DNA from: Bacteroidota bacterium
GTDB taxonomy: Bacteria > Bacteroidota > Ignavibacteria > Ignavibacteriales > Melioribacteraceae
NCBI GenBank assembly: GCA_039714835.1
Contig: JBDLIN010000001.1
Coordinates: 1 to 58,379 of the forward strand
Length of the DNA stretch: 58,379 nt
Direction of reading: 5' to 3'
In this document: positions 727 to 30,028 of the stretch, piece after piece
How the letters are laid out: each line of letters opens with the position of its first letter
Numbering within the stretch: position 1 is the first letter of the stretch
Notes under the pieces: model-generated
Told to the model about the DNA's origin: nothing
Databases searched by the model: none
The model's input: only the letters and a program-made list of their open reading frames with translations
Position numbers and translations under genes: made by a program

Positions 727-1797
727 TTAACATATTCTAGGTAACTGCTCACCAGAAATCATATCAACAATCCTTTTACTGCCGATTGATGTTTTCATAA
801 CAACTCTACCGGAATGCTCTTCTGTAACTTTACCAATAATTCTAGAGTCAATTCCATATTTGTGATTTTGCATAGCCTCTAACACTTTTTCAGCATCATC
901 TGCATCAACAAATGCTATCAACTTTCCTTCATTTGCGATGTATAAAGGATCCAATCCTAAGATTTCACAAGCACCAATAACCTGTTCATTAATTGGTATA
1001 TCAGCCTCATCAATTTCAATTCCTATATCAGCAGATAATGCAATTTCATTAAGTGTACTTGAGAGTCCTCCTCTTGTGACATCTCGCATCATTTTTATTT
1101 TTTCAGAAGTATTGAGCATTGAATCAACAAGTCCATTTAAAGGTGCAGTATCACTAAGAATTTCAGTTTCGAATTCTAATCCTTGACGAGCTGACATGAT
1201 TGCAATTCCATGATCACCGATTTTACCGCTTAATATAATTACATCACCTGGTCTACAGTTAAGAGGTGAAATATTTAAATCATTATTTACAATCCCTACA
1301 CCGCTTGTGTTGATGAAGACTTTATCTCCTTTCCCTCTCTCAACGACTTTTGTATCACCTGTAACTATCTCCACTCCGGCTTTATCCGCAGCTTCTTTCA
1401 TAGAAACAACTATCTTCCATAGGTCGTCAAAGGGTAGTCCTTCCTCAATAATAAAACCAGTTGATAAATACATTGGTTTTGCTCCAGCAACAGCTAAATC
1501 GTTAACAGTTCCGTTTACAGCAAGTTCACCAATATTACCTCCAGGGAAAAAGATTGGCTGCACGACATACGAGTCAGTAGTAAACGCTAATTTTTCTTTT
1601 CCAATATTGAATACAGCACTGTCATTTTGTTCATTCAAAAAACCATTGTCAAATTGCGAAACAAAAATTTTTTCAATTAGTTGATGTGTTAGTTTCCCAC
1701 CCCCTCCATGAGCAAGAAGTACTTTTTCATATTCGCTTTTAGGTATTGGACAGGAGATCATAAAGTTAGCCTCTAACAATAGTTTATGTAAGTTCAT
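727..1797 (-). CDS. hypE: [NiFe] hydrogenase maturation protein HypE (carbamoyl dehydratase)
   Basis: AIR-synthase-like fold motifs (LLAHGGGG, DDLAVAGAKP) and the diagnostic C-terminal PRIC. The true start is probably the internal Met at 1761 (MISCPIP...), because the first 12 codons lie in the AAAGT repeat region. Confidence 0.9.
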   Translation of the reverse strand: MNLHKLLLEANFMISCPIPKSEYEKVLLAHGGGGKLTHQLIEKIFVSQFDNGFLNEQNDSAVFNIGKEKLAFTTDSYVVQPIFFPGGNIGELAVNGTVNDLAVAGAKPMYLSTGFIIEEGLPFDDLWKIVVSMKEAADKAGVEIVTGDTKVVERGKGDKVFINTSGVGIVNNDLNISPLNCRPGDVIILSGKIGDHGIAIMSARQGLEFETEILSDTAPLNGLVDSMLNTSEKIKMMRDVTRGGLSSTLNEIALSADIGIEIDEADIPINEQVIGACEILGLDPLYIANEGKLIAFVDADDAEKVLEAMQNHKYGIDSRIIGKVTEEHSGRVVMKTSIGSKRIVDMISGEQLPRIC

Positions 1798-1917: not shown

Positions 1918-3051
1918 TTAATTTACTTTGAACTTTAGTTCACTTCTTTTATAAGAAAAATATGCTGCACAAGCTCCTTCAGCTGAAACCATAGGGGCTC
2001 CCAAAGGATGTTCCGGTGTACAGCCAACTCCAAATTCGGAACATTCAAAAGGTTTATTCTTCCCTTGTAAAATCGATCCTGCAATACAAGATTCCGGTTC
2101 TTTGACTCTTAAATCTTTAATATCAAATATCTTTTCTGCATCAAAACTAGAGTATTCATTTTTAATACCATACCCGCTTTGGGGAATTACTCCAATCCCC
2201 CGCCATTTCATATCAATAACTTGGTAGACAGAAAACATTGTGTTTTTTGCAGATAAATTTCCATTTATTGAAACTACTCTGCTATATTGATTCTCAAGTT
2301 TAGCCCTTCCCTCTTCAAGTTGCTTGACGACCATGTACACACCTTGCATTATATCAACAGGTTCAAATCCTGTAACTACAATGGGAACATTGAACTTATC
2401 AACTAAAGGTTGATATTCACTGTATCCCATTACAGTGCAAACATGGCCCGCTGCAAGAAATCCATCAATTACTGCTGTATTATCAGAAAGTAAAGCATTG
2501 ATTGCCGGCGGGACGATGACATGAGATACAAGTAAAGAGAAATTTTTAATACCCCTACGTTTTGCTTCTATGACTGATGCTGCATTTGCCGGTGCTGTTG
2601 TTTCAAATCCAATAGCGAAGAACACAATATTCTTATTAGGATTTTCCTCTGCAATTTTAACTGCATCAAGAGGAGAATAAACCATTCTTACATCTGCTCC
2701 ATTTGCCTTCACACTTAGTAGATCATCCTTGGAACCTGGGACACGCATCATATCTCCATATGTTGTAAATATTATATCTTTGCGTGAAGCTAAGATTATT
2801 GCTTTGTCAATCTTCTCTATTGGCGTTACACAAACTGGGCAACCCGGACCGTGAATTAGTGTGATATCATCTGGTAATAATTCCTCAATACTATATTTCA
2901 TTATTGAATGTGTTTGTCCACCGCAAATTTCCATTATTGACCAAGGTTTAGTTGTTACCTCTTCAATTTTTGTTTTGAGATTTTGGACTAATAAAGCGTC
3001 TCTATATTCTTTAATGTATTTCATATGATAATTATCCATCATCTTTGTCAT
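1918..3051 (-). CDS. hypD: [NiFe] hydrogenase maturation protein HypD
   Basis: [10 protein letters not shown]-terminus, GPGCPVCV motif, C-terminal Cys-rich region (GACAAYF). The first ATG of the ORF (3049..3051) lies inside the inverted-repeat element, so the likely true start is the Met at 3024 (MKYIKEYRD). Confidence 0.9.
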
Positions 3052-3482: not shown

Positions 3483-5801
3483 CTAAGAATTTACATAAGC
3501 GTTTTGGTGTATTTTTAATGTACTCAAATCAAAATCTACATATTTCGTATTCGCTGCTGCAATTTGTCCCAATGCAATCCCGCCATCATTTGTAGGAACT
3601 CTTTGATGTATATAGACCTTACGATTATTGCTTTCCAACAATTCAATAGTTTTCTCAACCAAATAAATATTCTGAAAACAACCACCACTTAAGATAACTT
3701 TCTCTTCTCCAACTAACTGTGCGACATCCAATATTATCCTGGATAGAGTATTATGAAATTTTGTTGATATTTCAGAAATAGTAATCCCCATATTCAACTC
3801 AGATAAGATTGATTCTATCATTTTACTCCAATCAATCAGAATTTTTTCATTTTCAATTAACTCAAATTGATACTCTCCTGATATATTTTTATCAACTAGA
3901 AATTCTAATTTCATTGCTGACTGACCTTCATAGTTCGAAATACTTGAAACTCCGAGCAATGCTGAGACTGCATCAAATAATCTACCTACACTTGAGGTTT
4001 TTGGTGAGTTAATGTTTTTATTCAGCATTGATCTTAATATCTCTGTTTCATTGCTTGTAAAAGTGAGTTCTTCAATTAAGACATAGTTATTAAAGACATT
4101 CTCCCCGTACAGCTCATATAAAGCACCTAGAGCTGCTCGTCGGGCTTCTTTAATAGCCTTCTCCCCACCAGGCAAAGGGAATTGTTTAAATTGTGCGATA
4201 TGACTGAATTCATTTTCATTAGAGATGAAAAACTCTCCTCCCCAAATAGTATTATCGAAGCCATAACCAGTACCGTCCCATGCAACTCCTAACGCACTAC
4301 CGGTTACTTGGTTCTCGGCTCGGCATGATGCAACATGTGCATAATGATGCTGTATAGGTTTACATTTCCCTTCTGACAATTTTGCAAATAATGTCGATAA
4401 ATACTCAGGGTGCAGATCACAGATTATTTCTGAAGGTTCGGATTCATAAAGTCTTTCAAAATCATCAATGACTTTAATAAAAGCACTATAAGCAGACTCT
4501 GTTGAGAGATCACCTATATGTTGACTAACAAATACGTTTTCGTTTAGTTTTAATGCAATACTATTTTTTAGATGTCCTCCAACTGCTAGAATTGATTTTT
4601 GACTTTTATCTTCACTTAAATGAATTGGTAATGGAGCATATCCTCTAGCCCTTCTTAAAACCATTTCTCTACCTAGGACAACTCTAACAATTGAATCATC
4701 AACTTGTCTTACAATTGGTCTGTTATGAATTAAAAAATAATCTGCAATGCCAGTCAGTTTTTCAAATGCTTCTTTTTCATCAATACATATAGGTTCTTCA
4801 GATATGTTCCCACTTGTTGCAACTATTGGTAAATCAAGATTATTCAACAGTAAATGATGTATCGGAGTATAGGGCAGCATAATTCCAAGATAAGGATTCC
4901 CAGGAGCAACTGATTCAGCAACATCTGTGGAATTTTCATCTTTCCTTTTTAGTAAAACAATTGGAGATTCTGGTGATTGGAGAACTCTTTTCTCAAATTC
5001 AGACACATCGCAAGCTTCATTAATACTGTCGATCGAAGGGAACATTAATGCAAACGGTTTTTCATCTCTGTGTTTTCTTTCTCTTAACTGTTTAACTGCA
5101 TCATCATTTCTTGCGTCAACAATAAGTTGGTAACCTCCCAATCCTTTTAATGCAATGATTTTTCCTTCACGTACTTTATCAGCAGTTAGATCAATTGCTG
5201 AATTGCCAACCACCTTCTCCCCTTCACTACTGATCAGCTCAACTTGTGGTCCGCATTTTGGACATGCAGTTGGCTGAGCATGAAATCTACGATCCAATGG
5301 ATTCTCATATTCTGCTTGACATTCCTCACACATTATAAATTCTTTCATTGAAGTATTTGGACGATCATAAGGAAGAGATTCAATAATAGAAAATCGAGGT
5401 CCGCAGTTCGTGCAATTAATGAAAGGATAATGATACCTCCTATTTGAGGAATTATTCATCTCTTGTAAGCAATCTTCACAAACTGCAATATCCGGGAGTA
5501 TTATTGTTGATTTTTCATCTTCGCATTTACTATCAATGATTTTAAATTCTTCGAATCCAATCGAATCTAAAAATGAAAATTCCATTCCACTGATAAATGA
5601 AAGTTCAGGTTTTTCTTTTTCAATTTTTAAGATGAATTCTTCAAGAATATGTTTATCCCCTTCAGCCTCAATAAAAACTCCTTGTGATGAATTATAAACA
5701 AATCCTTTTAAATCAAGGTTTGCAGCAAGTCGGTATATAAAAGGGCGAAAACCAACTCCCTGTACAGCTCCTCGAATATTTATTTTTGCTCTGGTTATCA
5801 T
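3483..5801 (-). CDS. hypF: carbamoyltransferase HypF
   Basis: 772 aa. Acylphosphatase-like N-terminus (VQGVGFRPFIYRLA), two CxxC-x18-CxxC zinc fingers, YrdC-like and Kae1-like C-terminal domains. Confidence 0.92.
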   Translation of the reverse strand: MITRAKINIRGAVQGVGFRPFIYRLAANLDLKGFVYNSSQGVFIEAEGDKHILEEFILKIEKEKPELSFISGMEFSFLDSIGFEEFKIIDSKCEDEKSTIILPDIAVCEDCLQEMNNSSNRRYHYPFINCTNCGPRFSIIESLPYDRPNTSMKEFIMCEECQAEYENPLDRRFHAQPTACPKCGPQVELISSEGEKVVGNSAIDLTADKVREGKIIALKGLGGYQLIVDARNDDAVKQLRERKHRDEKPFALMFPSIDSINEACDVSEFEKRVLQSPESPIVLLKRKDENSTDVAESVAPGNPYLGIMLPYTPIHHLLLNNLDLPIVATSGNISEEPICIDEKEAFEKLTGIADYFLIHNRPIVRQVDDSIVRVVLGREMVLRRARGYAPLPIHLSEDKSQKSILAVGGHLKNSIALKLNENVFVSQHIGDLSTESAYSAFIKVIDDFERLYESEPSEIICDLHPEYLSTLFAKLSEGKCKPIQHHYAHVASCRAENQVTGSALGVAWDGTGYGFDNTIWGGEFFISNENEFSHIAQFKQFPLPGGEKAIKEARRAALGALYELYGENVFNNYVLIEELTFTSNETEILRSMLNKNINSPKTSSVGRLFDAVSALLGVSSISNYEGQSAMKLEFLVDKNISGEYQFELIENEKILIDWSKMIESILSELNMGITISEISTKFHNTLSRIILDVAQLVGEEKVILSGGCFQNIYLVEKTIELLESNNRKVYIHQRVPTNDGGIALGQIAAANTKYVDFDLSTLKIHQNAYVNS

Positions 5802-6454
5802 TTGTTATTAATATTTTGTAAAAACCATTCTACCCATTCATCAATTCCCTCGCCGGTTCTACAAGAAACTGTGAAAATCTTTGCAGTTGGATTAACCTCT
5901 TGTACATTATTTTTTAATTCATCAAGACTAACACCAGAGTATGGAATTAGATCAATTTTATTTAAAAGGACTACATCAACCGTATGAAACATAACCGGAT
6001 ATTTCTTTGGCTTTTCTGCTCCCTCAACAACACTGAAAACCATTACTTTTAATTTTTCACCTAACTCAAAATCTGCCGGACAAACCAAATTCCCAACATT
6101 TTCAATAAACAGTAAATCGTTTCCTTCCAGATTAAAATCATGAAGTGCGTTGTGGATCATTCTTGCATCAAGATGACACACTGTTCCAGTGGTAATTTGA
6201 TATGATGGAACATCAAGTGCTTTGATCCTATCAGAGTCTATGGATGTTTGTAAATCACCTTCAATAACAGAAATTTTAAATTGACCATTTATTTTTTTTA
6301 TTGTTTCTTCTAAGACAGAGGTTTTCCCTGCTCCAGGAGCAGACATAAAATTCGTGACGTGTAAATTATACTTTTCAAATAGTTTTTTGTTCACTTCTGC
6401 AAGTCTACTATTTTCTTGAAGAATTTGACTATTTACATCTATTATATGCATCAC
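5798..6454 (-). CDS. hypB: hydrogenase nickel-incorporation GTPase HypB
   Basis: P-loop SAPGAGKTS, NKIDL G4 motif, 218 aa. The stop overlaps the hypF start by 4 nt (ATGA). Confidence 0.9.
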   Translation of the reverse strand: MMHIIDVNSQILQENSRLAEVNKKLFEKYNLHVTNFMSAPGAGKTSVLEETIKKINGQFKISVIEGDLQTSIDSDRIKALDVPSYQITTGTVCHLDARMIHNALHDFNLEGNDLLFIENVGNLVCPADFELGEKLKVMVFSVVEGAEKPKKYPVMFHTVDVVLLNKIDLIPYSGVSLDELKNNVQEVNPTAKIFTVSCRTGEGIDEWVEWFLQNINNK

Positions 6455-6538: not shown

Positions 6539-6880
6539 CTATTCCACATCAATAAAATCTATCCGCATTTCTTTTCCTTCAACAATATCTAATGTCTTAC
6601 CACAATTAGGACATAAGAAATAAGATTCATTTTGTCCAATAAATGTCTTATCACATTCTTGACAAAATGTTTTAAGTTTTATTGTCTCTATTTCGAATTT
6701 AGCATCATGAGCTACTGTGTTTTTTTTTATAATATCTAAAGCAAATTCAAGTGCTTCTTTTACAATACCGGTGAATTCACCAATAATAAGTTTAACTCTG
6801 TTTACAGTTGACGCGCTGTTATTCTTTACTTCATTTTCAATTATTTCTAAAATATTTTGAGCTATACCTACTTCATGCAT
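6539..6880 (-). CDS. hypA: hydrogenase nickel metallochaperone HypA
   Basis: MHE N-terminal Ni site, CQEC...CPNC zinc site, 113 aa. Confidence 0.9.
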   Translation of the reverse strand: MHEVGIAQNILEIIENEVKNNSASTVNRVKLIIGEFTGIVKEALEFALDIIKKNTVAHDAKFEIETIKLKTFCQECDKTFIGQNESYFLCPNCGKTLDIVEGKEMRIDFIDVE

Positions 6881-6915: not shown

Positions 6916-7626
6916 CTAAAGCCCTAAAAACTGAATACTTATTCCACATAATAAAACTGAAATGCCTGCTAATGTATGTATGTGGTTCTGCACTCTACGT
7001 AAAGGGAAATAATTCAATCCATAAATTCCTATAAAAACCATTACTTGCATTGTTATTAATGTAGCCAATGAAAATATTGAAGCAACTGCAATGACTACTA
7101 CAATGTTGAGACTAGCCGCTGGATAAATTAGTAAAGGGATCAAAGGTTCACACGGACCTAAAACAAACACAATAAAAATTAACCAAGGCGTTAGTTTTCT
7201 GCTTTCTGAAATATGTATATGAGAATGATCTGTTCTGTGGCTATGTTTATGAGTATGGACAGCACCATCCATGTGGATATGCATATGTGAATGAGTCCTA
7301 TTCCTTTGAGATTGTTTCAATCCCCATACAGCATACAGTAATCCAAATGAAATTAACAACCAACCAGCAATATCAGCTCTGAATGATTCTATACTTTCTA
7401 ATGAAAATAACGATGCACCTACCACAAAACCAGCAACACCAATGATAATTGAAGAAATCACATGGCCAGCACCACAAACTAATGTTATAATAGCTGTTTT
7501 AAAATTAGTCCATTTTTCAGACTTTGATAAGACAATGAAAGGAATATAATGGTCGGGGCCTAATGCAGTATGCATAAAACCGATTGATGCAGCAGTAACT
7601 AACAATATTATCAGTTCGGTATTCAT
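6916..7626 (-). CDS. NicO/RcnA-family nickel/cobalt transporter with His-rich loop
   Basis: About 6 TM helices. Architecture matches E. coli RcnA: HTALGPDH in TM1 (cf. HGLEPGH), central loop HSHMHIHMDGAVHTHKHSHRTDHSHIH, then LGPCEP (cf. GGLIPCP). Confidence 0.7.
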   Translation of the reverse strand: MNTELIILLVTAASIGFMHTALGPDHYIPFIVLSKSEKWTNFKTAIITLVCGAGHVISSIIIGVAGFVVGASLFSLESIESFRADIAGWLLISFGLLYAVWGLKQSQRNRTHSHMHIHMDGAVHTHKHSHRTDHSHIHISESRKLTPWLIFIVFVLGPCEPLIPLLIYPAASLNIVVVIAVASIFSLATLITMQVMVFIGIYGLNYFPLRRVQNHIHTLAGISVLLCGISIQFLGL

Positions 7627-7645: not shown

Positions 7646-9127
7646 CTATATAAATCTCCTTTTGCAGTCAATTAAGTTTTTATCTGAATCGTATATATTT
7701 AACTCTAAAGGCATCTGACCAGGTAAAGTATGAGTAGCACATCCAAAACATGGATCGTACGCACGGAAAGCCATCTCGATCATATTGAGTGTTCCATCCG
7801 TTACTTCAACACCTTTCTTAATCAATCCCTGTGCTGCTTTTTTTATTGACATAGAAATTGGAGCATGATTATTCGTTGTCCCAACAATTAGATTTGCTTT
7901 TTTAACTATTCCGTTCTCATCTGTAATATAATGATGAGTTAAAGTTCCACGAGGAGCTTCAACAATCCCAATTCCTTCATGTGGAGTATCAGTTGGCAGG
8001 ACACGATAATTTTTCGAAGTAATTTCAGGATCATTAATTAACTCATTTGCTCTTTCGGCCGCATACATCAGTTCTATTACTCTAGCCCAATGTGTTGCGA
8101 GCGTATGATGAACAGGTATATTGCCTGAACTATCTCCGGTTAGGGTTTCATAGTATTTTTCATATTCAGCTTGAGCAAGAGGTGTTGCCATACCATCCGA
8201 TGCGTTTAATCGAGACTGAGGTGTAGCCCGATATACTCCACTGTCCATTCCATCAACAAATCCTTTCCATCCAATATTTTTTAGGTATGGATATTTTAAA
8301 TAATTCCATTTTTCAGTATGTTCAGCAATATGTTCTCTATATTCATTAGGTCCATATTTGCAAAATTCATTTCCTTCAGGATCCACAACACGAACTTTAC
8401 CGTCATAAAAATTCACCTTATTGTTTTCGTCAACTAATCCCATTGAATATGTTTTATGCGTGTAGGTGTCTGAAACTATAAGATCAACATATGCTGAGTT
8501 TTTCAATACAATATCTTCAAACACTTGAAAAGTAAATTTTCCAAACTCGATGAAATATTTTAGATCTTCTGCAAATTTATCTCGTTCTTCTTCACTTAAC
8601 CCGCGTGATACTCCTCCCGGTAATGAAGTAACTTGATGGATCTTTTTACCACCTAATGTTTGAATTATATTTTGTGCTAACGATCGAAGTTTAATGACCT
8701 TTTTCCCAGCTTCTAAACCTACTTTGTTAATCACACCTAGCAAATTTCTTTCAGCAGGAGGTGCATCAGGTCCAACAACGAAATCGGGACCGCCGAGCGC
8801 ATAAAAGTGAACTGTATGATCAGCAGTGAAAAATGTTGAATACAAAAGCTCACGTAATTTTTTCGCTGCAGAAGGGATTTGAACATTATATACTGCATCA
8901 CAAGCTTTTGCCGAAGCCATATGATGTGCTTCAGGACAAACTCCGCAAATTCTTGTTGTGATCCTGGGCATATCCTCAACCGGTCTACCCTGAGAAAACT
9001 TCTCAAATCCTCTCAGTTCCGGAATTATGAAATAACAATTCTCAACCCCACCATCCTCATTTAAAAATATATCTATCTTTCCATGTCCTTCAAGTCGAGT
9101 TATCGGATCAATTTTTATTCGCTTCAT
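7646..9127 (-). CDS. mvhA: [NiFe] hydrogenase large subunit, group 3c (MvhA-like)
   Basis: N-terminal RICGVCPEAHH and C-terminal DPCFGCATH metal-binding motifs, with a 27-aa C-terminal extension for protease processing. Adjacent to mvhG/mvhD/hdrABC. Confidence 0.88.
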   Translation of the reverse strand: MKRIKIDPITRLEGHGKIDIFLNEDGGVENCYFIIPELRGFEKFSQGRPVEDMPRITTRICGVCPEAHHMASAKACDAVYNVQIPSAAKKLRELLYSTFFTADHTVHFYALGGPDFVVGPDAPPAERNLLGVINKVGLEAGKKVIKLRSLAQNIIQTLGGKKIHQVTSLPGGVSRGLSEEERDKFAEDLKYFIEFGKFTFQVFEDIVLKNSAYVDLIVSDTYTHKTYSMGLVDENNKVNFYDGKVRVVDPEGNEFCKYGPNEYREHIAEHTEKWNYLKYPYLKNIGWKGFVDGMDSGVYRATPQSRLNASDGMATPLAQAEYEKYYETLTGDSSGNIPVHHTLATHWARVIELMYAAERANELINDPEITSKNYRVLPTDTPHEGIGIVEAPRGTLTHHYITDENGIVKKANLIVGTTNNHAPISMSIKKAAQGLIKKGVEVTDGTLNMIEMAFRAYDPCFGCATHTLPGQMPLELNIYDSDKNLIDCKRRFI

Positions 9128-9189: not shown

Positions 9190-10161
9190 TCATTGTACCC
9201 TTCTAAAAGTTGAAGCAGCAAGGGAAAATCTATAAAATGTCCCCAGTGGATCGGCTATTTTATCCATTATTTTTCGAACTTCTTCTGGTGTACTCGCATC
9301 AATAACAGAGCTAAGAGCAGATACCATTTTTGCTCCTTGGTCTTTTACATTTGCTGGAGCGCCATAACATCCCCTACAGGGTATGTTTGCCTGCACACAT
9401 AAAGCAGAGCATCCACCTCTTGTTGCCGGCCCAAGACAAAGTATTCCTTGATCAAGCAGACACTCATCTTCTTTTGGTATAATTTCATGGGGTCGGAAAA
9501 ATTCTTTGATCTTTTTCTCTTTTCGTTCACGAGGACACTCGTCACAACAAGTTTTATCAGTTGCTCCTAAAACTGCTCCTTTAGGCGGAAGAGGTTTACC
9601 AGTAGTTAGAATATCAATAACTGCCTCAATTACAGCTATTACCTGAAAAGACTGGGGTGGACATCCCGGGATATAATAGTTAACATCAACAGTTTGGTCT
9701 AATGTTTTTACTGTGTCATAAAATTCAGGTATTTCTATCTTTCCTTCAGGCATTTCTGTTTCAGTTTGAGGGAATACATTTTTTGATTCATCTTCAAGAC
9801 TTGGTGATTCATTATAAACATAATCGAAAGTACTTTGTTTATCATAAAAATTTGATAATCCTGGGATACAGCCTTCATGAGCACAAGAACCAAACGCGAT
9901 CAATATTTTTGATTTATCTCTTAACAGTTTAGCCATATATTCATTTTCTGATGTTCTGATCGATCCATTAAACAAAGTAATGTCAATTTCATCATCTTCC
10001 ATTGCTTCAACATCACTGTACTTAAAATCCATAACACAAGGCCAAAAAACTATGTCGAAAAAGTCTGCAACATCAAGGATTTTTTCTTCGATATCAACGA
10101 CGGTAATCTCACACCCGCCGCAGCTAGCAGCCCAATATAACGCTAACTTTGGTTTAGCCAT
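9190..10161 (-). CDS. mvhG: [NiFe] hydrogenase small subunit (MvhG-like)
   Basis: ASCGGCE proximal-cluster motif and further Cys clusters (GSCAHEGCIPG, CxxCPxxxK, CLGPATRGGCSALC, CRGC). No Tat signal peptide, consistent with a cytoplasmic group 3 enzyme. Confidence 0.85.
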   Translation of the reverse strand: MAKPKLALYWAASCGGCEITVVDIEEKILDVADFFDIVFWPCVMDFKYSDVEAMEDDEIDITLFNGSIRTSENEYMAKLLRDKSKILIAFGSCAHEGCIPGLSNFYDKQSTFDYVYNESPSLEDESKNVFPQTETEMPEGKIEIPEFYDTVKTLDQTVDVNYYIPGCPPQSFQVIAVIEAVIDILTTGKPLPPKGAVLGATDKTCCDECPRERKEKKIKEFFRPHEIIPKEDECLLDQGILCLGPATRGGCSALCVQANIPCRGCYGAPANVKDQGAKMVSALSSVIDASTPEEVRKIMDKIADPLGTFYRFSLAASTFRRVQ

Positions 10162-10175: not shown

Positions 10176-10649
10176 TTAATTATTTCTTAATTTTAGTGGT
10201 CCTAATTCCTTCAGTGTTTCTGTGAATTCAAATGATACTTGAGCGTACTTTTCAGCTTCAGAGGCAGATATCCACTCTAATCTTAATCTTTTTTCATCAA
10301 TCCCAAAATGATCTAAAACCATTTTCATCATTTTAACACGCCGCATCGTTTTAAAATTTCCTTCGATATAATGACAGTCACCAAAATGACAACCAGCCAC
10401 TAATACACCATCAGCCCCAAGCTGAAAGGCACGAACAATAAATGAAGGATCAACTCTACCAGAGCACATTGTTCTTATTATCCTCACATTTGGAGAGGAT
10501 TGAACTCTTGATACACCAGCCAAATCAGCTCCGGAGTATGAACACCAGTTACACATAAATGCCACAATTTTGGGCTCAAACTTTTCCGGCGAAGTTGATT
10601 TTCTAGTCGTACTCTGTTCTTTCTCAATTGCTTTTTTTTCTGTTTCCAT
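10176..10649 (-). CDS. mvhD: methyl-viologen-reducing hydrogenase delta subunit (MvhD/FlpD family)
   Basis: IVAFMCNWCSYSGADLAG ... CSGRV ... GCHFGDCHY signature of the MvhD [2Fe-2S] protein. Confidence 0.85.
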   Translation of the reverse strand: METEKKAIEKEQSTTRKSTSPEKFEPKIVAFMCNWCSYSGADLAGVSRVQSSPNVRIIRTMCSGRVDPSFIVRAFQLGADGVLVAGCHFGDCHYIEGNFKTMRRVKMMKMVLDHFGIDEKRLRLEWISASEAEKYAQVSFEFTETLKELGPLKLRNN

Positions 10650-10686: not shown

Positions 10687-13600
10687 CTACACTTCTAATA
10701 TCCCTTCTAATTCCGCATAGATCTGTGCATCTGAGAATCCCATTCCCGTAATGGCGCCTGCCGGACAAGCTGCTACACACGTTCCGCAGCCTTTACAAAG
10801 AGCTTCGTTAACAACTGATAACTTTTCCTCATCCAGAAAATCAATGGCTCCATAAGGACATAAGTTATTACATATTCTACATCCGGCACAATAATTTTCA
10901 TCTATGAACGCTCTTATCGGATCAATATCGACCTCACCTTTAGAAATAATTGATAATGCTCTAGCAGCTGCTCCACTTGCCTGTGATACAGTATCTGGAA
11001 TATCTTTTGGTCCTTGAGCACAACCAGCAAGATATATTCCATCACTAACTGTTGAAAATGGATCCAGTTTTGGATGTTTCTCTAATAAGAATCCATCCGG
11101 ACTCTTAGAGAGACTAAGTATTTTTGCAAGCTTATCAGTTGCTTTATTTGGTTGTAGAGCATTACAGAGAATAACCATATCAACTGGTATCTCGCGAAAT
11201 TTACCGATGAGTGTATCTTCACATTTTACTGCTAAAAATTTATCTCCTTCTCCAGCTTTACGTTCCACTACTTCTGCTACTTTACCTCGAATAACATTTA
11301 CACCTTCATCCAAAATTCTAGAATAAAATTCTTCATAACCTTTACCATAAGCTCTAATGTCAATGTAAAATTGATATACTTCTGCCTTGGTTCTATCTTT
11401 AACAAGGTGTGCAAATTTCATTGAATACATACAACATACTCTTGAACAGTATTTATGGAAGTTAGAATCACGTGATCCAACACAATGGATTATTCCAACT
11501 GCACGAGGTTCTTGACCATTTTCTAATAATACTCTACCTCCTGTTGGACCAGTTGAGCTTAAAATTCTTTCAAACTCGAGAGAATTATATACATTCTTTA
11601 ATCTACCATAACCAAACGGAACTAGTTTTGAAGCATCAAACAGATCATATCCGGTAGCAACAATTATTTGTCCAACATCAACTTCAGTAACTTTATCTTG
11701 CATATTATAATCTATTGCGTTAGGCTCACATACTCTTTCACATTCATGGCACTCAACACAAACACCGCAGTTCAAACATCTTGAGGCTTCGTTTACTGCC
11801 TGCTCTTCAGTAAAACCTATTTCCACCTCTTCGAAATTTATTACTCTTCCCTTTGCATCTATTTTAGGAACTTCTTCTCTCTCTTTCTTTGGTGTTTCTT
11901 TGTATGTAGGTGCATAAGTATGTGGTCTGAAACTCTCTCCTCTTAGCACATCAGATTTCACAATATGAGTTGAATAATTTTCAAGCGGTTGATTATTAAT
12001 ATATTTATCGATTGATTCTGCAGCTCTTCTACCTTGTCCCATTGAAGCAATAATAGTAGAAGGCCCTAATACCAAATCACCACCAGCAAATATTCTTTCG
12101 TCATTTGTTTGAAGTGTTTCAGGATTTGCTTGAATAGTATTCCACTTTGTTGTTTTTAGATTAACTCCAGAATCTCCATTTAATCCTACAAGATTAGGGG
12201 CTTGACTAACAGCAACAATAACTGTACTGAATTCCAGATCATGCTCTGAACTCGTAACTGGTACTGGCCTTCTTCTACCGGATGAATCAGGTTCCCCAAG
12301 TTTCATCCTTATACATTTTAATCCTTTTACTTTACTGTTATCATCAACCAATACCTCAGTTGGAGCTGTTAAGAATGAAATGTTCACTCCTTCAGCTTCC
12401 GCATCGGCGATCTCCTCTGGTGAAGCTGGCATTTCATTTTTAGTCCTACGATATAGAATTGTTACCTTTTTGCTCCCCATTCTTAATGCAGTTCTTGCTG
12501 CATCAATTGCAGTATTACCACCACCGATAACTGCTACACTCTTTCCTAATTCTTGCTGAATTCCAATATTAACCTTTCTAAGGAAATCTACTCCTCCGAT
12601 TATGCCTTTAGCACTTTCCCCTGGAATCCCAATCTTCAGACTATCTTGTGCTCCTACTGCTAAAAATATTGCTATGAATCCTGATTGGAATAGCCCATTA
12701 ATAGTTATATCATAACCTAATTTCATATTAGTTCTTATATCGATACCCATTGCTTTAAAGTAGTTTATCTCCATTGCTAATAATTTCTTGGGTAATCGAT
12801 ATTCAGGAATTCCGATTGCTAACATACCCCCCGGAATTGAATGCTGTTCATAAACTGTAACTTTGTATCCTTTCATAGCTAAATCATGTGCACAGGTTAA
12901 ACCTGATGGACCAGATCCAATCACAGCAACTTTTTCATAACGTTTAGTCTCAATTTTCGGTACTTCAAACTTTCCATTATGTTCAATTTCCCAATCTAAG
13001 GCAAAACGTTTTAACTGCTGGATAGCTAAAGGTTTATCCACATGTCCACGATTACATTCACTCTCGCAAGGATGATAACAGACTCGACCGCAAACTACAG
13101 CAAGTGGATTTCGCTGATGAATTAGTTGAGCTGCTTCATGGAATCGCCCTTCTCTGATAAGAGCAACATAACCAGCTGCTTCCTGTCTAATAGGACAAGC
13201 TTCAATACAAGGTGGTTTTTCTTGTCTATCAATAACATATGTGTTCGGAACTGCTTGAGGAAATGCTTTGTGAATAGAATGCCTATCCTGAGTGAATTCA
13301 TCAAACCAATTAGGTACATTTACAGGACATACATCTGAGCACTCACCACAGGAAGTACATTTATCCGTTACAAATCTTGCTCTTGTTCTAATTTTAGCTT
13401 TAAAATTTCCAATATATCCGCTTACATCTTCTACTTCTGACATCGTCATCATTTTTATATTTTTCTTATGACTAACAGAAACCATTTTCGGTGTTAGAAT
13501 ACAAGCAGAACAATCTAGTGTTGGAAATGTTTTATCGAATTTTGCCATTTGTCCACCAATGGTGGATTCTTTCTCCACCAGATAGACATTGTTGCCAGAT

Positions 13601-14097
13601 TCAGCAATTTCTAAAGCAGCTTGAATTCCAGCTATTCCACTTCCTACAATTAAAGTGTCCGGGTGAATTTTAGCTTTCATCGTACTTAATTCTTCCTGAT
13701 GTTCTACTCTGTGAACAGCAGCATTTACAAGTGCATGTGCCTTTAATGTAGCTTTATCAATATCCTCATGCACCCAAGCACAATGTTCACGAATATTAGA
13801 CATTTGAAATAAGTATCTATTTAAACCAGCACGCTCACATGCATCTCTAAATGTAAGTTCATGCATATGTGGAGAACATGCTGCAACTACAATTCGATTC
13901 AATCCTTGAGCCTTTATATCATCTTGAATCATTTTTTGACCAGGATCAGAACACATAAACTTATAACTTTTTGATACTACGACATTGGGATTTGATTTTA
14001 ATGCTTCAGCAACTTCATCAACACGAACTGTCTGTGAAATATTTACACCACAATGACATACATACACGCCAATTTTTCGGTCATTATTCATTTGCAT
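10687..14097 (-). CDS. hdrA: HdrA-like flavoprotein with a nested GltD/NfnB-like NAD(P)H oxidoreductase module (HdrL-type, 1136 aa)
   Basis: HdrA N-terminal domain (VYVCHCG), FAD motif IVGSGIAGIQAAL, HdrA-specific HCVGSRD...YCSRVCC, C-terminal 2x[4Fe-4S]. Residues ~295-705 (nt ~11983..13215) look like the glutamate synthase small subunit: CIEACP...GRVCYHPCESEC, VAVIGSGPSGLTCA, VAVIGGGNTAIDAA, IFAGGD. Confidence 0.85.
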   Translation of the reverse strand: MQMNNDRKIGVYVCHCGVNISQTVRVDEVAEALKSNPNVVVSKSYKFMCSDPGQKMIQDDIKAQGLNRIVVAACSPHMHELTFRDACERAGLNRYLFQMSNIREHCAWVHEDIDKATLKAHALVNAAVHRVEHQEELSTMKAKIHPDTLIVGSGIAGIQAALEIAESGNNVYLVEKESTIGGQMAKFDKTFPTLDCSACILTPKMVSVSHKKNIKMMTMSEVEDVSGYIGNFKAKIRTRARFVTDKCTSCGECSDVCPVNVPNWFDEFTQDRHSIHKAFPQAVPNTYVIDRQEKPPCIEACPIRQEAAGYVALIREGRFHEAAQLIHQRNPLAVVCGRVCYHPCESECNRGHVDKPLAIQQLKRFALDWEIEHNGKFEVPKIETKRYEKVAVIGSGPSGLTCAHDLAMKGYKVTVYEQHSIPGGMLAIGIPEYRLPKKLLAMEINYFKAMGIDIRTNMKLGYDITINGLFQSGFIAIFLAVGAQDSLKIGIPGESAKGIIGGVDFLRKVNIGIQQELGKSVAVIGGGNTAIDAARTALRMGSKKVTILYRRTKNEMPASPEEIADAEAEGVNISFLTAPTEVLVDDNSKVKGLKCIRMKLGEPDSSGRRRPVPVTSSEHDLEFSTVIVAVSQAPNLVGLNGDSGVNLKTTKWNTIQANPETLQTNDERIFAGGDLVLGPSTIIASMGQGRRAAESIDKYINNQPLENYSTHIVKSDVLRGESFRPHTYAPTYKETPKKEREEVPKIDAKGRVINFEEVEIGFTEEQAVNEASRCLNCGVCVECHECERVCEPNAIDYNMQDKVTEVDVGQIIVATGYDLFDASKLVPFGYGRLKNVYNSLEFERILSSTGPTGGRVLLENGQEPRAVGIIHCVGSRDSNFHKYCSRVCCMYSMKFAHLVKDRTKAEVYQFYIDIRAYGKGYEEFYSRILDEGVNVIRGKVAEVVERKAGEGDKFLAVKCEDTLIGKFREIPVDMVILCNALQPNKATDKLAKILSLSKSPDGFLLEKHPKLDPFSTVSDGIYLAGCAQGPKDIPDTVSQASGAAARALSIISKGEVDIDPIRAFIDENYCAGCRICNNLCPYGAIDFLDEEKLSVVNEALCKGCGTCVAACPAGAITGMGFSDAQIYAELEGILEV

Positions 14098-14203: not shown

Positions 14204-15100
14204 TTAAAATGTAATTTGTTTAGCTCTGTGAGATTGATTCATTAATTTCTCAACCTTGTCACATTTATAAAAATTCAGATCTATCCCAAGTTCTTTTTCA
14301 CTTAATCCTAATGCGACACCAAGAATTTGTGTGAAGAAGAATATTGGCATTTGATAATTAGTTCCAAAAGTTTTATTTATCTTTTGCTGATATGATTCTA
14401 AATTCATTTGGCAAAGTGGACATGTGGTTACAATACAATCAGCACCATTTTCTACAGCTCTCATAAGAAGCCATTCAGATAATTTCAGGGCTGTTTCTTC
14501 ATAAGTCGTCATCAGCATTCCACCACAGCATCTTAACTTACAAGCGTAATAAACATTTTCAGCACCTAATGATTCAAAGAGATTTTCCATAGAGGTTGGA
14601 TTTTCTCTATCATCAAATCTTTTTTCTGGCCTAACAATTTGGCATCCATAGTAGTTGGCAATTTTTAATCCTTCTAATTCACACATCGCATAGAGTCTAA
14701 TAATCTCAACACCAATATCATTTACTAAAACATCTAAAGGATGGCGGATTCTAACACTTCCATTATAGCTTAAACCATCTTCTGCGAGGCAGCCATTCAC
14801 TTTTTCCATTAGCTCTTTATTCTCTATCATATACTTATTTGCTTTGCTCAGAATTGTGTAACACGAACTACATGGAGCAATTATATCACTATGCATTTTT
14901 TCAGCTAATGCTAAATTCCGTGAGGCAATAGCAAGTGAAGTTATTTCTTTAATCGACATATAAATAGTTGCACCACAACAGTTCCAATCTTCAAGCTCTT
15001 TCATCTCTGATCCTAATGCTTTAAAGACCGCTCTGCATGAAATATCATAACCCTTATGAGTAGTTTGCAAACTACAACCTGGATAGTATAAATGATTCAT
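14204..15100 (-). CDS. hdrB: heterodisulfide reductase subunit B-like (two CCG domains)
   Basis: Two Cys-rich CCG motifs (DWNCCGA; KLRCCGG) with the accompanying CxxC/CPxC cysteines. 298 aa. Confidence 0.85.
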   Translation of the reverse strand: MNHLYYPGCSLQTTHKGYDISCRAVFKALGSEMKELEDWNCCGATIYMSIKEITSLAIASRNLALAEKMHSDIIAPCSSCYTILSKANKYMIENKELMEKVNGCLAEDGLSYNGSVRIRHPLDVLVNDIGVEIIRLYAMCELEGLKIANYYGCQIVRPEKRFDDRENPTSMENLFESLGAENVYYACKLRCCGGMLMTTYEETALKLSEWLLMRAVENGADCIVTTCPLCQMNLESYQQKINKTFGTNYQMPIFFFTQILGVALGLSEKELGIDLNFYKCDKVEKLMNQSHRAKQITF

Positions 15101-15134: not shown

Positions 15135-15791
15135 TTATCCTACAGCCCTATAACCTACTGCTCCATCGATGTACGGTTTTTTGTCATAAACTTTTGGTAA
15201 ATCTAACTTTTGAGCCTTTTTCATAATTTTTCTCAAACCTGAAACATTCTTAATTTTTGTCGGCTTCAACTCAATTCTTCCTCTTTTTGCTAACTTATAA
15301 GTAAGTGGTAATAATTTGAAGCCCTTCCAAAATCCTGTTCTTAGTATATGATCAAACATTAATCTTGGTTCATAAAGTCTTCCGTATCTATAAAGATTCT
15401 TAATAAATGCATCTCTGACTGAGTGAACAGGGAATTTTTTTGTATAAATTCTTCTATCCATCGCTGTTCTTTTAATCGCATAGATAATATCTGTTATTTT
15501 AATAGCTGCTGGACATCTCGATTGACAAGCATAACATGAAGCACAGATCCAAATGGTTCTGCTCCTTAAAATGGTTTCCATATCACCTGCCCGAAAAAGA
15601 GCAATTAGTTCACGCGGTGTAATATCCATTGCATATGAAAGTGGACATGATCCTGTGCATGTACCACACTGAATACAAGTTTTAATTTTTTCTCCTTCAG
15701 GAATAATATTCACATGATCTAAGAATGCAAGTCTTAGTTCAGTTTCTTTAAGACTAAGTTTACCTGGAATTTTGATATCCTTAATTTCCAT
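15135..15791 (-). CDS. hdrC: heterodisulfide reductase subunit C-like (2x[4Fe-4S] ferredoxin domain)
   Basis: CIQCGTCTGSCP and CASCYACQSRCP cluster motifs. Located next to hdrB. Confidence 0.8.
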   Translation of the reverse strand: MEIKDIKIPGKLSLKETELRLAFLDHVNIIPEGEKIKTCIQCGTCTGSCPLSYAMDITPRELIALFRAGDMETILRSRTIWICASCYACQSRCPAAIKITDIIYAIKRTAMDRRIYTKKFPVHSVRDAFIKNLYRYGRLYEPRLMFDHILRTGFWKGFKLLPLTYKLAKRGRIELKPTKIKNVSGLRKIMKKAQKLDLPKVYDKKPYIDGAVGYRAVG

Positions 15792-15829: not shown

Positions 15830-16351
15830 TCAGTTTTCACGCCTTTTAATCCTATCAGCTCTAAGTCTATGTTCAGCATCCCAAACTTCAGAACTCTTAA
15901 AATATGCCGGATATTTCTCAATCATTTCTAATTCAGCTGTTAACATCATCTGGTGTGAAAATTTCATATCAGCTATAAATCTAAAACACCTTTTGCCTGA
16001 TAGATCTGTAATTGCTTCCGCAAGGTCCAGATAATACTCTCGTGATTCTTTATGCCCTTGAATTACATGCTGTAGAATTCCCTTAATGGAAAGATTTCTA
16101 TCCAATAATATTTTCTTATCATGGTCTCGTGGTGGCACGATCAATTCTACATTTGGAAACATTTCTTTATATTTTTTTTCAAGCAGCTTTTGCTGTTTTT
16201 TTTCTTCATGATAAAGATTCATGATTCGATTCTTTAAAATTTCATTTTCAGCTTTATCTGCTAGATTTTGATATATTTCCTGATCATCTATTAGCCCACG
16301 AATTGCAATTCCAAGAACTTCTAATGAAGTTATTTCTTCTGTTCTTTCCAT
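15830..16351 (-). CDS. hypothetical helical protein, possibly a ferritin/rubrerythrin-like four-helix bundle with degenerate metal ligands
   Basis: 173 aa. Helix pattern AIRGLIDDQEIY / LYHEEKKQQ / GHKESREYY / IADMKFSHQ resembles rubrerythrin-type E..H pairs, but several ligand positions are substituted. This is a weak call. Confidence 0.3.
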   Translation of the reverse strand: MERTEEITSLEVLGIAIRGLIDDQEIYQNLADKAENEILKNRIMNLYHEEKKQQKLLEKKYKEMFPNVELIVPPRDHDKKILLDRNLSIKGILQHVIQGHKESREYYLDLAEAITDLSGKRCFRFIADMKFSHQMMLTAELEMIEKYPAYFKSSEVWDAEHRLRADRIKRREN

Positions 16352-16373: not shown

Positions 16374-16859
16374 TTAATTTTCTACTTCCTCTACTTGCAG
16401 TGATTCAATCTCTTCAACTACCATGTTGATGCAACTTTCAACACTTCTTTTTATGATGGGTGATATTTCTTCAGAAAAATGATCAGTTTCATCTACTTCA
16501 ATACCAAAAACCATTATTTTTTCCGGCATTGTGATATCCATAATTTTCGCGAACTCTATGGCAGTAGCAAAGTTGATATCATGAAACGAAACCATTCTAA
16601 CAGAGTGTATTAAGTCCTGATAGTCTAGCTTATGTACGAATCCTAAATGTTTACGTTTTGTTTGAAGTGCATCAATAACTATTGCAGTGTTATAGCCGTC
16701 AAGAAGGTCAATTATTCTAAAACCACCCCAGCTTGTTTCCTCTATGTCAATATTTTCATAATTGTTGTAGATTTCCCTTAATCTTTCAGCGACAACAATC
16801 CCAACACCATCATCCCCAAAAAGCTTGTTGCCCATACCCAGTATTAGCAACTTTTTCAA
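16374..16859 (-). CDS. hydrogenase maturation endopeptidase (HycI/FrhD/HoxW family)
   Basis: LILGMGNKLFGDDGVGI N-terminal signature, 161 aa. The start is TTG, with AGAGAGGA upstream. Confidence 0.85.
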   Translation of the reverse strand: MKKLLILGMGNKLFGDDGVGIVVAERLREIYNNYENIDIEETSWGGFRIIDLLDGYNTAIVIDALQTKRKHLGFVHKLDYQDLIHSVRMVSFHDINFATAIEFAKIMDITMPEKIMVFGIEVDETDHFSEEISPIIKRSVESCINMVVEEIESLQVEEVEN

Positions 16860-16890: not shown

Positions 16891-16906
16891 TGCAAATTGA
16901 ATGCCG
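16891..16906 (-). promoter_or_regulatory. candidate sigma-54 (-24/-12) promoter of the hydrogenase/hdr/hyp cluster
   Basis: The minus strand reads CGGCAT-TCAAT-TTGCA, versus the consensus TGGCAC-N5-TTGCW. GG and GC are at the canonical spacing, ~32 nt upstream of the TTG start at 16859. Confidence 0.5.
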
Positions 16907-28933: not shown

Positions 28934-29962
28934 TTATTGTGATATCATAATTCCGAATCTATGTACTCCATCAAATACCCCGAAATCAGAGTAGGAGTAA
29001 TCAAATGCAAATAGTCCTAAACCACCTATAATTATTTTTACTCCTGCACCAGCTGAAAATGAGCTCTCAGAATAGCCTATCCGGTATCCTGAACGAATAC
29101 TGAATTGTTCATCAAACACATATTCAATTCCGATATTAGATTTAAGATTATAATCCACAGCACTAGATAAATCAACTGATGAGAGTAAAGTTGATTTGTC
29201 CGATTTAATAATATCACCTTTGGCCCCAATGATTTCTGCTGATAGTCCCATACGAAATGTAGTAGGCATTGCCCATTCTTCTGTAATAAGTTCAGCAGGA
29301 GCATTAAATAATCCTTGATGATCTGGTTCCGATTGGAATTGCATGTCAATACCAGACATCTTCATTGGTGGGCCAACATTTGAAAGATTCATACCAATAT
29401 TTAATCCATAAATATCTGTATGTAGCAGCAACCCGAAGTCAGCAGCAAAAGATGACGCACTGTTTCTGGAAATACTCTCTCTTAAATATTTGAGGTTTAA
29501 TCCAACTAATAATCGATCAGTCATTTTCTTCGCTACTGATACTCCTAATGACATATTAGAAACTTCGTAAAACTGACCTGTCCCGTCCCATTGCGATTCA
29601 GTTGTAATCTCAATGTCACCGGATGTGAGATATATAGCGTTCAATCCAATAGTTAAATCAGAACCTAAAGGAATCGATAATCCACCAAAATTATGAACAA
29701 TACCAGCATAAAGTTGAAGGTGTTCAATTTGTGCAGATATACTATTGTAATTAGCCAATCCTGCCGGATTCCAATACATTGAAGTCAGATCATTTGAAAT
29801 ACTAACAAAAGCACCACCAAGAGCGGATGCTCGTGCACCAACTTCTATTTTCATAAAATTCGCTGCACTTGTTCCAACTTTTGTTTCACCAGCCTTAATT
29901 TGAGGATTGATCAAAAAAGCTAATATCAAAGTACATATCAAATATTTATGTTTCATATTCAT
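28934..29962 (-). CDS. PorV/PorQ-family (FadL-like) outer-membrane beta-barrel protein, copy 1
   Basis: Signal peptide. N-terminal GTSAANFMKIEVGARASALGGAF...MYWNPAGLA signature. Alternating beta-strand pattern with an aromatic C-terminus. Paralog of 49296..50330. Confidence 0.7.
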   Translation of the reverse strand: MNMKHKYLICTLILAFLINPQIKAGETKVGTSAANFMKIEVGARASALGGAFVSISNDLTSMYWNPAGLANYNSISAQIEHLQLYAGIVHNFGGLSIPLGSDLTIGLNAIYLTSGDIEITTESQWDGTGQFYEVSNMSLGVSVAKKMTDRLLVGLNLKYLRESISRNSASSFAADFGLLLHTDIYGLNIGMNLSNVGPPMKMSGIDMQFQSEPDHQGLFNAPAELITEEWAMPTTFRMGLSAEIIGAKGDIIKSDKSTLLSSVDLSSAVDYNLKSNIGIEYVFDEQFSIRSGYRIGYSESSFSAGAGVKIIIGGLGLFAFDYSYSDFGVFDGVHRFGIMISQ

Positions 29963-30028
29963 AACTCTCTTTACTATGAAAAGTTTTCATAATGCATTTA
30001 TTTAAGTCAATTTAATTTGTTGTATTCC

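Follow-up and report, generated by a model that had tools for sequence, protein, structure and literature searches.

The window analysed here is a stretch of 58,379 nucleotides (contig JBDLIN010000001.1, GenBank assembly GCA_039714835.1), and its minus strand carries the gene for an HdrA-like protein of 1136 amino acids with an unbroken reading frame (Table 1). On that strand the gene order is hycI, a rubrerythrin-like gene, hdrC, hdrB, the hdrA fusion, mvhD, mvhG, mvhA, a putative nickel transporter gene and the hyp genes, with gaps of 14-106 bp. An earlier reading of the letters by a model (hereafter the original prediction) had described this protein as HdrA at both ends with a complete GltD/NfnB-like NAD(P)H module nested between them, encoded in an MvhADG-HdrBC context in a non-methanogen. 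Comparisons of sequence, profile and predicted fold confirm that it is a complete HdrA of methanogen type whose inserted ferredoxin domain is interrupted by a GltD/NfnB-like module for flavin adenine dinucleotide (FAD) and NADPH. The host belongs to the Ignavibacteria or is closely related to them: the best homologues bear the names Ignavibacteria, Ignavibacteriaceae or Melioribacteraceae (75-90% identity), and genes for PorV-like proteins and for type IX secretion cargo lie in the window, in keeping with the non-methanogenic host that had been assumed.

The split HdrA and its nested module

In a phmmer comparison with the PDB, residues 6-292 match HdrA of Methanothermococcus thermolithotrophicus (5ODC) at positions 3-291, and residues 780-1133 match the same protein at 293-649; Methanothermobacter HdrA (8RVU) is matched equally well (E ~1e-205 to 1e-211). 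Since the two halves align to adjoining 5ODC residues, the insertion lies inside HdrA's inserted ferredoxin domain, with ~487 residues intercalated between consecutive HdrA positions, between the first and second CxxCxxCxxxC of that domain. This is the insertion point that the original prediction had proposed. When residues 293-778 are deleted in silico, the remaining 650 amino acids form one unbroken HdrA profile match (817.8 bits, positions 1-642). These scores are below the curated NCBIfam cut-offs, both for HdrA2 (806.6 bits intact and 817.8 with the insert removed, cut-off 1100) and for the HdrA of CoB-CoM heterodisulfide reductase (611-630 bits, cut-off 1400). Pfam places Fer4_20, Pyr_redox_2 and NAD_binding_8 in the middle of the protein and FAD and ferredoxin domains at both ends, and the NCBIfam domain calls agree with this architecture.

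All four domains of methanogen type I HdrA are present with their cofactor ligands when both halves are aligned to 5ODC and 8RVU. In the first part lie an N-terminal Fe-S domain (C14, C16, C49, C74), the opening stretch of the FAD domain, which is thioredoxin-reductase-like (GxGxxG at 152-157, C196/C199), and one half of the inserted ferredoxin domain (C247xxC250xxC253xxxC257P). The second part supplies the other half of the ferredoxin domain (C780xxC783xxC786xxxC790), the remaining FAD-domain sequence and its four-cysteine cluster (C872, C884, C888, C889) and a C-terminal 2x[4Fe-4S] ferredoxin domain (C1070-1111; motifs at 1070-1081 and 1101-1112). Across an alignment of 56 homologues every Cys of the Fe-S sites, in the module as in both HdrA halves, is invariant together with C196/C199, as are G152-G157, both FAD motifs and the NADPH motifs. 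Every motif quoted in the original prediction is found where it was placed: VCHCG (13-17), GSGIAGIQAAL (152-162) and CTSCGECSDVCP (247-258) in the first HdrA part; CIEACP (297-302), VCGRVCYHPCESEC (335-348), VAVIGSGPSGL (390-400), VAVIGGGNTAIDAA (521-534) and IFAGGD (669-674) in the centre; and CLNCGVCVECHEC (774-786) and HCVGSRD/YCSRVCC (871-889) at the seam and in the second HdrA part. An AlphaFold2 model built on the 56 homologues (mean predicted local distance difference test score 82.3, predicted template modelling score 0.66) resembles both components, with a template modelling (TM) score, taken on the target, of 0.82 against HdrA 5ODC_A and 0.79-0.80 against NfnL and NfnB, and superimposes on StnC with a root-mean-square deviation of 3.1 A over 486 columns (40% identity). 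The domain-resolved profile and structure checks proposed with the original prediction thus place the central segment with NfnB, NfnL and GltD.

The insert matches NfnB/NfnL (4YLF_B, E 1e-99; 5JCA_L, 1e-95), GltD and dihydropyrimidine dehydrogenase, and more strongly still the NfnL-like module of StnC (Sporomusa ovata StnABC) and of the NfnA of NfnABC enzymes, here NfnA(Bfu). The identity of the module given in the original prediction therefore holds, while its boundaries do not: residues 295-705 do equal nt 11983-13215, but the module is larger. In NfnB and NfnL the N-terminal element is a helix ending in RCLxC, from which the distal cluster draws its first two Cys; NfnB 13-43 and NfnL 6-47 align at residues ~738-778, past the flavin domains, so that the insert comprises residues 293-778 (nt 11764-13221). 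Placing 738-778 ahead of 293-705 in silico and scoring the product against GltD profiles yielded end-to-end matches to TIGR01316 (3-449 of 449) and TIGR01318 (7-465 of 467), a gain of 16-20 bits, while the native order is preferred by the PRK12771, PRK12814 and YgfK profiles. The module is, on this alignment evidence, a circularly permuted 'insertion-type' GltD module, and it lacks the domain order of NfnB/NfnL, in which the helix and CxxC come first. Segment 293-778 is instead collinear with StnC (8OH5_C 101-578) and with NfnA of Thermococcus sibiricus (9N5U_A 106-602) and Caldicellulosiruptor (9BOV_A 101-585).

The permutation brings the last Cys pair of the module, RC774LNC777, against the second HdrA motif, C780VEC783HEC786ERVC790, with only the spacer GV between them. 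This seam is kept in 120/120 close homologues and in 55/150 distant representatives, and the spacer is two residues long in 211/212. The two [4Fe-4S] sites of the module comprise C297, C301, C340, C344, C348 and K363 together with C774 and C777; the allocation of these Cys to individual clusters is a putative one, taken from homology to dihydropyrimidine dehydrogenase.

The NfnB-like character assigned to the module in the original prediction stands as far as alignment goes, but the permutation and the ligand set bring it nearer to the non-bifurcating StnC than to the bifurcating NfnB. By alignment register K363 corresponds to StnC K170 and R434 to StnC R239. K363 is invariant in the 56 homologues, and the Glu ligand of the NfnB/NfnL proximal cluster is absent; among distant relatives with the module the position is occupied by 64 K, 5 E, 5 H and 3 R. 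In StnC the strictly conserved Lys ligates the FAD-proximal cluster in place of the Glu of bifurcating NfnB, and the StnC flavin has been demonstrated to be non-bifurcating. The Rossmann folds carry GSGPSG (394-399) for FAD and G525-G-G-N-T-A530 with Y549-R-R551 for the nicotinamide. The latter, GxGxxA followed by Y-R-R as in NADPH-using StnC and NfnB, points to NADPH specifically, which narrows the broader NAD(P)H use first proposed. Permuted order, Lys ligand, nesting in another Fe-S domain and NADPH motifs are thus all found together, as in StnC and NfnA(Bfu). In distant homologues (P0121-P0270) the NADPH-phosphate motif divides into Y-R-R in 49, this protein included, and C-L-E in 22, which suggests that one subfamily is specific for NADPH and another for NADH.

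A 566-position 'NAD(P)-binding protein' profile, PRK12771, spans both seams (residues 270-810, window 11668-13290; 535 against a cut-off of 516). This hints at a stand-alone family of ferredoxin domains with a nested GltD, and at an HdrA that may have acquired the whole cassette and not a bare GltD. Between the HdrA part and the insert, pairwise identities over 42 distant proteins correlate at 0.30, both being saturated near 43% identity.

Table 1. Features of the hdr-mvh-hyp region on the minus strand of the window
Feature	Coordinates	Strand	Remarks
hycI	16374..16859	-	Endopeptidase of the HycI/HybD family for hydrogenase maturation; the cluster begins with it
Rubrerythrin-like gene (ferritin-fold)	15830..16351	-	Pfam Rubrerythrin 8e-9
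hdrC-like	15135..15791	-	2x CxxCxxCxxxCP
hdrB-like	14204..15100	-	Two complete CCG motifs
hdrA with nested GltD/NfnL-like module	10687..14097	-	1136 aa, 'type III HdrA' / HdrL-like protein
HdrA part 1, residues 1-292	13222..14097	-	Aligns to 5ODC HdrA 3-291
Nested NADPH module, residues 293-778	11764..13221	-	Collinear with StnC/NfnA module
Permuted element, residues 738-778	11764..11886	-	N-terminal helix and 'RCLxC' of NfnB/GltD
HdrA part 2, residues 779-1136	10690..11763	-	Aligns to 5ODC 293-649
mvhD	10176..10649	-	[2Fe-2S], FlpD family
mvhG	9190..10161	-	[NiFe] hydrogenase small subunit
mvhA	7646..9127	-	[NiFe] large subunit; RxCGxC (C61, C64) and DPCxxC (C460, C463) intact
His-rich DsbD_2-like membrane protein	6916-7626	-	Between mvhA and hypA; loop HSHMHIHMDGAVHTHKHSHRTDHSHIH
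hypA	6539-6880	-	
hypB	5798-6454	-	
hypF	3483-5801	-	
hypD	1918-3051	-	
hypE	727-1797	-	

Distribution and published relatives

The suspicion that hdrA and gltD were joined by an assembly or gene-calling artefact, which the original prediction had named as a way in which it might fail, has nothing in its favour beyond the unusual length of the open reading frame (ORF), and its probability is practically nil. More than 120 clusters of full-length homologues (1119-1163 amino acids, 61-90% identity, 99-100% coverage) occur in independent assemblies, and because the same architecture is kept across them the ORF is not a chimera. There is no break in composition across the gene. A homologue from Rosettibacter firmus, 76% identical, lies in the same operon on a 1.59-Mb contig. 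A census of one genome per species with a seam-specific pattern confirmed at least 566 loci, and hence the seam in at least 566 species-level genomes of bacteria and archaea. Among the matches listed, the bacteria include Ignavibacteria, Calditrichia, Zixibacteria, Aminicenantes, Gemmatimonadetes, Acidimicrobiia, Chloroflexota, Sumerlaeota, WOR-3 and Nitrospinia, and the archaea Bathyarchaeia, ANME-1 (Methanophagales), Thorarchaeota and Hadarchaeota. Full-length versions are also found in Asgard archaea and in Dehalogenimonas sp. WBC-2 (50% identical). The design is therefore far commoner, and better documented, than the original prediction had implied.

The MvhADG-HdrBC context is likewise borne out by conserved synteny. 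The order hdrC-hdrB-hdrA[GltD]-mvhD-mvhG-mvhA is repeated in ~25-30 of the best 80 loci, distributed over some ten bacterial phyla (seen in Ignavibacteria, Calditrichia, Latescibacteria, Zixibacteria, Vicinamibacteria, Gemmatimonadetes, Phycisphaerae, Acidimicrobiia, Myxococcales and Chlorobiota); other loci have mvhD alone beside hdrA, or neither mvhD nor a close Mvh hydrogenase. In the window, mvhD-mvhG-mvhA stand beside hdr genes with the Ni-Fe Cys ligands intact, as is characteristic of group 3c (MvhADG) [NiFe] hydrogenases, and related Ignavibacteria clusters have been termed group 3c in the literature. The hydrogenase subunits hit the Vhu families best, in each case under the NCBIfam cut-off (VhuA 404 against 800, VhuG 211 against 450, VhuD 142 against 215), and the equivalog cut-offs for HdrB and HdrC are likewise not reached. 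HdrB has both CCG motifs in full (C9, C41, C42, C77, C80; C153, C191, C192, C227, C230). The idea that the HdrA N-terminal domain tracks the presence of Mvh was considered and rejected, as nearly all of the 80 best loci have the domain.

Seven Aminicenantes-type loci (L003, L015, L022, L024, L025, L027 and L029) carry hdrC-hdrB-hdrA[GltD] without an adjacent mvhD, and ~3-5 kb upstream of it a divergent [NiFe] hydrogenase that is 25-27% identical to MvhA/G. The same HdrA type appears in these loci to be paired with a different class of hydrogenase.

The architecture itself is already published, under three names. HdrL of Desulfobacterium autotrophicum was described as a fusion of heterodisulfide reductase and glutamate synthase, a large HdrA homologue with an NADH-binding site (Strittmatter 2009; PMC2702500), and was later found in Syntrophobacter proteomes under sulfate reduction (PMC5947623). 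The statement in the original prediction that such HdrA-NfnB fusions are known from sulfate reducers is thus correct. By its published description HdrL shares with the present protein the large HdrA fused to a glutamate-synthase-like NAD(P)H part and an mvhD immediately downstream, whereas the HdrL loci of D. autotrophicum and Syntrophobacter fumaroxidans are without MvhAG and have dsr, fdh or another hdrABC set as neighbours; selenocysteine is present in some HdrL proteins. In a 50%-identity library, proteins of ~900 and of ~1470-1530 aa likewise have the nested core (residues 148-1054), and the longer ones, which are without the HdrA N-terminal domain, may be of the HdrL type.

HdrA9, HdrA10 and HdrA11 of ANME-1 were reported as HdrA-NfnB proteins, 45% identical to NfnB, for which the authors raised two bifurcation sites (PMC9012536, 2022). 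The same proteins correspond to type III HdrA, defined by an inserted GltD domain (PMC12054007, 2025). That study, which had nine sequences only, inferred recent insertions, argued for NAD+ from GxGxxG, and by structure prediction of the archaeal protein put the GltD domain where ferredoxin access is blocked; it also described a Bathyarchaeota cluster with mvhADG, in which NADH was hypothesised to be the mid-potential donor for heterodisulfide and proton reduction. The present protein is like type III HdrA in its ~500-aa NfnB/GltD-like insert in the inserted ferredoxin domain, the remainder being type I HdrA, and like the Bathyarchaeota member in standing beside mvhADG. It differs in being bacterial (Ignavibacteria-like) and in having GxGxxA with YRR and not GxGxxG, and CoM-S-S-CoB cannot be assumed as its heterodisulfide. 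In view of the Y-R-R and C-L-E split, the NAD+ assignment (PMC12054007) may hold for some members only.

Further relatives share single parts of the design. StnC (8OH5) and NfnA of NfnABC (9BOV, 9N5U) have the same permutation, are collinear over ~490 residues at 40-44% identity, and share the proximal-cluster Lys, nesting in another Fe-S domain and NADPH use; however, their host domain is NuoG/FdhF-like, the bifurcating centre there is the flavin mononucleotide of the HydBC-like subunits and not an HdrA FAD, and StnC Cys114 is Ala307 here. The NfnAB/NfnSL large subunit (4YLF_B, 5JCA_L) has the FAD and NADPH Rossmann folds and two [4Fe-4S] sites at ~40% identity, but the module here is permuted, carries Lys for the Glu cluster ligand and has no NfnA/S partner in the window. 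Methanogen MvhADG-HdrABC (5ODC) shares every HdrA domain and cluster ligand (the HdrA parts are ~50% identical), the HdrB CCG motifs, HdrC and MvhD/G/A; here an NADPH module sits on the ferredoxin-reducing arm, and the host is not a methanogen. Mvh-Hdr clusters of Caldithrix were noted in 2017 as having 'functions yet unknown', and a genome study of Ignavibacteria annotated such clusters as ordinary MvhADG/HdrABC. No biochemical study of an HdrA-NfnB/GltD enzyme, HdrL included, or of the Rosettibacter hydrogenases was found in the literature, and the insertion is not mentioned in the abstract, introduction or opening methods of a bioRxiv preprint on HdrA evolution. To this record the present analysis adds a member from a bacterium, the finding of circular permutation, a StnC-type Lys and NADPH motifs in it, and the wide occurrence of the conserved operon among bacteria.

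Proposed coupling of H2, NADP(H) and a disulfide

The natural reading of this gene set, and that of the original prediction, would have H2, NAD(P)(H) and a disulfide wired into one complex, as has also been proposed for the archaeal equivalent (PMC12054007). Most likely, the complex couples H2, NADP(H) and a disulfide without free ferredoxin. The hdr and mvh genes are read as one functional unit because their order is conserved and the HdrB CCG motifs and MvhA Ni-Fe ligands are intact, and the operon would encode one soluble complex, MvhADG-HdrA[NADPH module]-HdrBC. As HdrA keeps every methanogen cofactor site, its FAD is expected to be the bifurcating centre, and probably the only one. In solved Hdr complexes the inserted ferredoxin domain is the low-potential exit from this FAD, in methanogens towards ferredoxin or polyferredoxin. 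The two clusters of the nested module would extend the chain of the two inserted-ferredoxin clusters, so that the ferredoxin docking site would be replaced, and probably occluded, by the module, and ferredoxin would no longer be the partner at that arm.

The module itself would then be a plain two-electron/one-electron converter, a port for NADP(H) and not a second bifurcating flavin. It looks like a non-bifurcating port because it is collinear with StnC and NfnA(Bfu), K363 equals StnC K170, and Lys predominates in relatives. Two bifurcating flavins in one polypeptide have been suggested for the ANME-1 HdrA-NfnB proteins (PMC9012536), with the module keeping NfnB-like bifurcation and sending NADPH electrons both to the HdrA chain and to another partner; the ~40% identity to NfnB/NfnL and the conservation of the Arg that contacts the FAD N5 in NfnB (R434 here) are consistent with this. 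The same Arg is, however, conserved in StnC without making that contact, and the only evident electronic outlet of the module is the host ferredoxin domain. A second bifurcating flavin is very improbable, given that Lys replaces the Glu of the NfnB proximal cluster, as in non-bifurcating StnC, and that the annotated ORFs in the operon and the window include no NfnA/NfnS (PyrK-like) partner.

The HdrA FAD would be the junction of three couples: H2/H+, by way of Mvh and MvhD, NADP+/NADPH, by way of the module, and a disulfide/thiol pair at the non-cubane clusters of HdrB. If the arms kept their methanogen roles, H2 would be the donor, the disulfide the high-potential acceptor and NADP+, in ferredoxin's place, the acceptor that is harder to reduce, with the reversible reaction 2 H2 + NADP+ + RS-SR' -> NADPH + H+ + RSH + R'SH. 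This wiring is regarded as the most likely one, though at somewhat less than an even chance. Calculated from standard potentials, the H+/H2 couple at 1-100 Pa H2 lies at ~-270 to -325 mV and a reduced NADP pool at ~-370 mV, below it, which makes H2 the middle couple. At the trace pressures of natural habitats, H2 alone could not keep an NADPH pool reduced; coupling to disulfide reduction would make this possible, and would be useful exactly where these organisms live.

Several points weigh against H2 as the donor. The direction of electron flow is something that we only infer, and at standard potentials the order is different, with H2 (-414 mV) below NADPH (-320 mV) and NADPH as the middle couple. 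In StnC and NfnA(Bfu) the module carries the mid-potential couple to a separate bifurcating flavin, which fits the exchanged roles better, and many relatives have mvhD only, or lack both mvhD and a close Mvh hydrogenase beside hdrA, which leaves NAD(P)H as their one evident two-electron donor. When all ORFs of 26 Mvh-type loci were clustered in the search for a disulfide carrier, the only recurring genes were those of the core, hycI, the hyp genes, the rubrerythrin-like gene and one for a sigma-54 activator; DsrC/TusE, thioredoxin and lipoyl proteins were not among them.

The same hardware would serve with the arms exchanged, NADPH being the mid-potential donor, the disulfide the high-potential acceptor and protons the low-potential acceptor via MvhD and MvhAG (2 NADPH + RS-SR' + 2 H+ -> 2 NADP+ + 2 RSH + H2, or the reverse confurcation, making NADPH from H2 and thiols). 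This agrees with the order H2 < NADPH < disulfide at standard potentials, with the hypothesis published for the Bathyarchaeota protein (PMC12054007), with the mid-potential role of StnC-type modules in Stn and NfnABC and with the relatives that leave NAD(P)H as sole hydride donor; many host phyla, moreover, are fermenters that need to dispose of NAD(P)H. It would nevertheless require the MvhD and inserted-ferredoxin arms to exchange roles that they hold in every solved Hdr complex, and at natural H2 pressures NADPH-driven H2 evolution needs no coupling. The disulfide would also be consumed stoichiometrically, so that the reaction is not a self-sufficient electron sink. NADPH as donor is regarded as the main alternative, though on the unlikely side. 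A different departure from the H2-driven scheme concerns the third couple: the HdrBC-like pair may feed an acceptor other than a disulfide, for instance menaquinone, by association with the membrane, or a partner that reduces peroxide, for which the rubrerythrin-like protein is a candidate. Against the SdhE anchor of methylmenaquinol:fumarate reductase HdrB reaches 206 bits, nearly as many as the 221 against CoB-CoM HdrB, both below the curated cut-offs, the rubrerythrin-like gene lies beside hdrC in 12 loci, and the host bacteria are not known to make coenzyme M or coenzyme B. Yet both HdrB CCG motifs are complete, as in disulfide-reducing HdrB, the rubrerythrin-like protein is without ExxH di-iron motifs and its gene is absent from most loci, and no membrane subunit is conserved in the operon across the 26 Mvh-type loci. 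A non-disulfide acceptor is improbable on this evidence.

The role of Mvh-Hdr clusters in non-methanogenic bacteria has been an acknowledged question since at least 2017. Were NADP(H) to take the place of ferredoxin at the low-potential arm, thiol/disulfide chemistry would be directly linked with trace H2 and with the NADPH pool that serves anabolism and antioxidant defence, and the reading of group 3c hydrogenase genes in metagenomes would change. It is conceivable, though doubtful at present, that the 'group 3c' hydrogenases of non-methanogenic bacteria usually have an NADPH-ported HdrA as partner, forming with it ferredoxin-independent bifurcating enzymes for H2, NADP(H) and a disulfide. 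Environmental surveys in which group 3c genes count as 'ferredoxin- and heterodisulfide-linked bifurcating hydrogenases' would then mis-assign function across a dozen phyla, and the 'ferredoxin[GltD]' unit, nested and permuted, would serve as a reusable cassette (PRK12771, YgfK, StnC, HdrA) that plugs NAD(P)H into Fe-S wires. The large family and its cultured hosts (Rosettibacter firmus, Dehalogenimonas sp. WBC-2) make the question experimentally testable.

Neighbouring genes and the remaining window

The His-rich DsbD_2-like membrane protein is probably a nickel transporter serving hydrogenase maturation. The rubrerythrin-like protein (173 amino acids, a single Cys, no ExxH di-iron motifs) is encoded in the same place in 12 related loci from Ignavibacteria, Calditrichia, Latescibacteria, Zixibacteria, Vicinamibacteria and Gemmatimonadetes, and may have a structural role as a subunit or provide a connection with oxidative stress.

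The strict sigma-54 promoter consensus, allowing at most one mismatch, has no match in the whole window. Upstream of hycI (16891-16906, minus strand) there is a candidate sigma-54 promoter, cGGCAt-N5-TTGCA, with the right -24/-12 spacing, which departs from the strict consensus at two positions. In Rosettibacter the gene immediately upstream of the operon is one for a sigma-54 activator (L001 6308-7270), and such genes recur in seven loci; in the window one is found at 37234-38202 (minus strand).

Lipoyl proteins act as disulfide carriers in sulfur-oxidising Hdr-like systems. A lipoate-related cluster occupies 38480-39370 and 42631-48314 of the window (minus strand) and comprises lipoyl synthase, a 2-oxoacid dehydrogenase E2, a fused E1, an LplA/B ligase and a dihydrolipoyl dehydrogenase E3; it thus has its own E3, and it is not kept near the operon in relatives. 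At the Rosettibacter firmus locus, and at this locus only, a DsrE-family gene (L001 16322-16675) lies just downstream of mvhA on the opposite strand, a possible sulfur-carrier link.

No tRNA genes were found in the window. A three-gene cassette is present twice on the minus strand, at 28934-35969 and 49296-56837, each copy encoding a TonB-dependent receptor with CarboxypepD_reg, a protein of 1080-1208 amino acids without a Pfam match, and a PorV-like protein.

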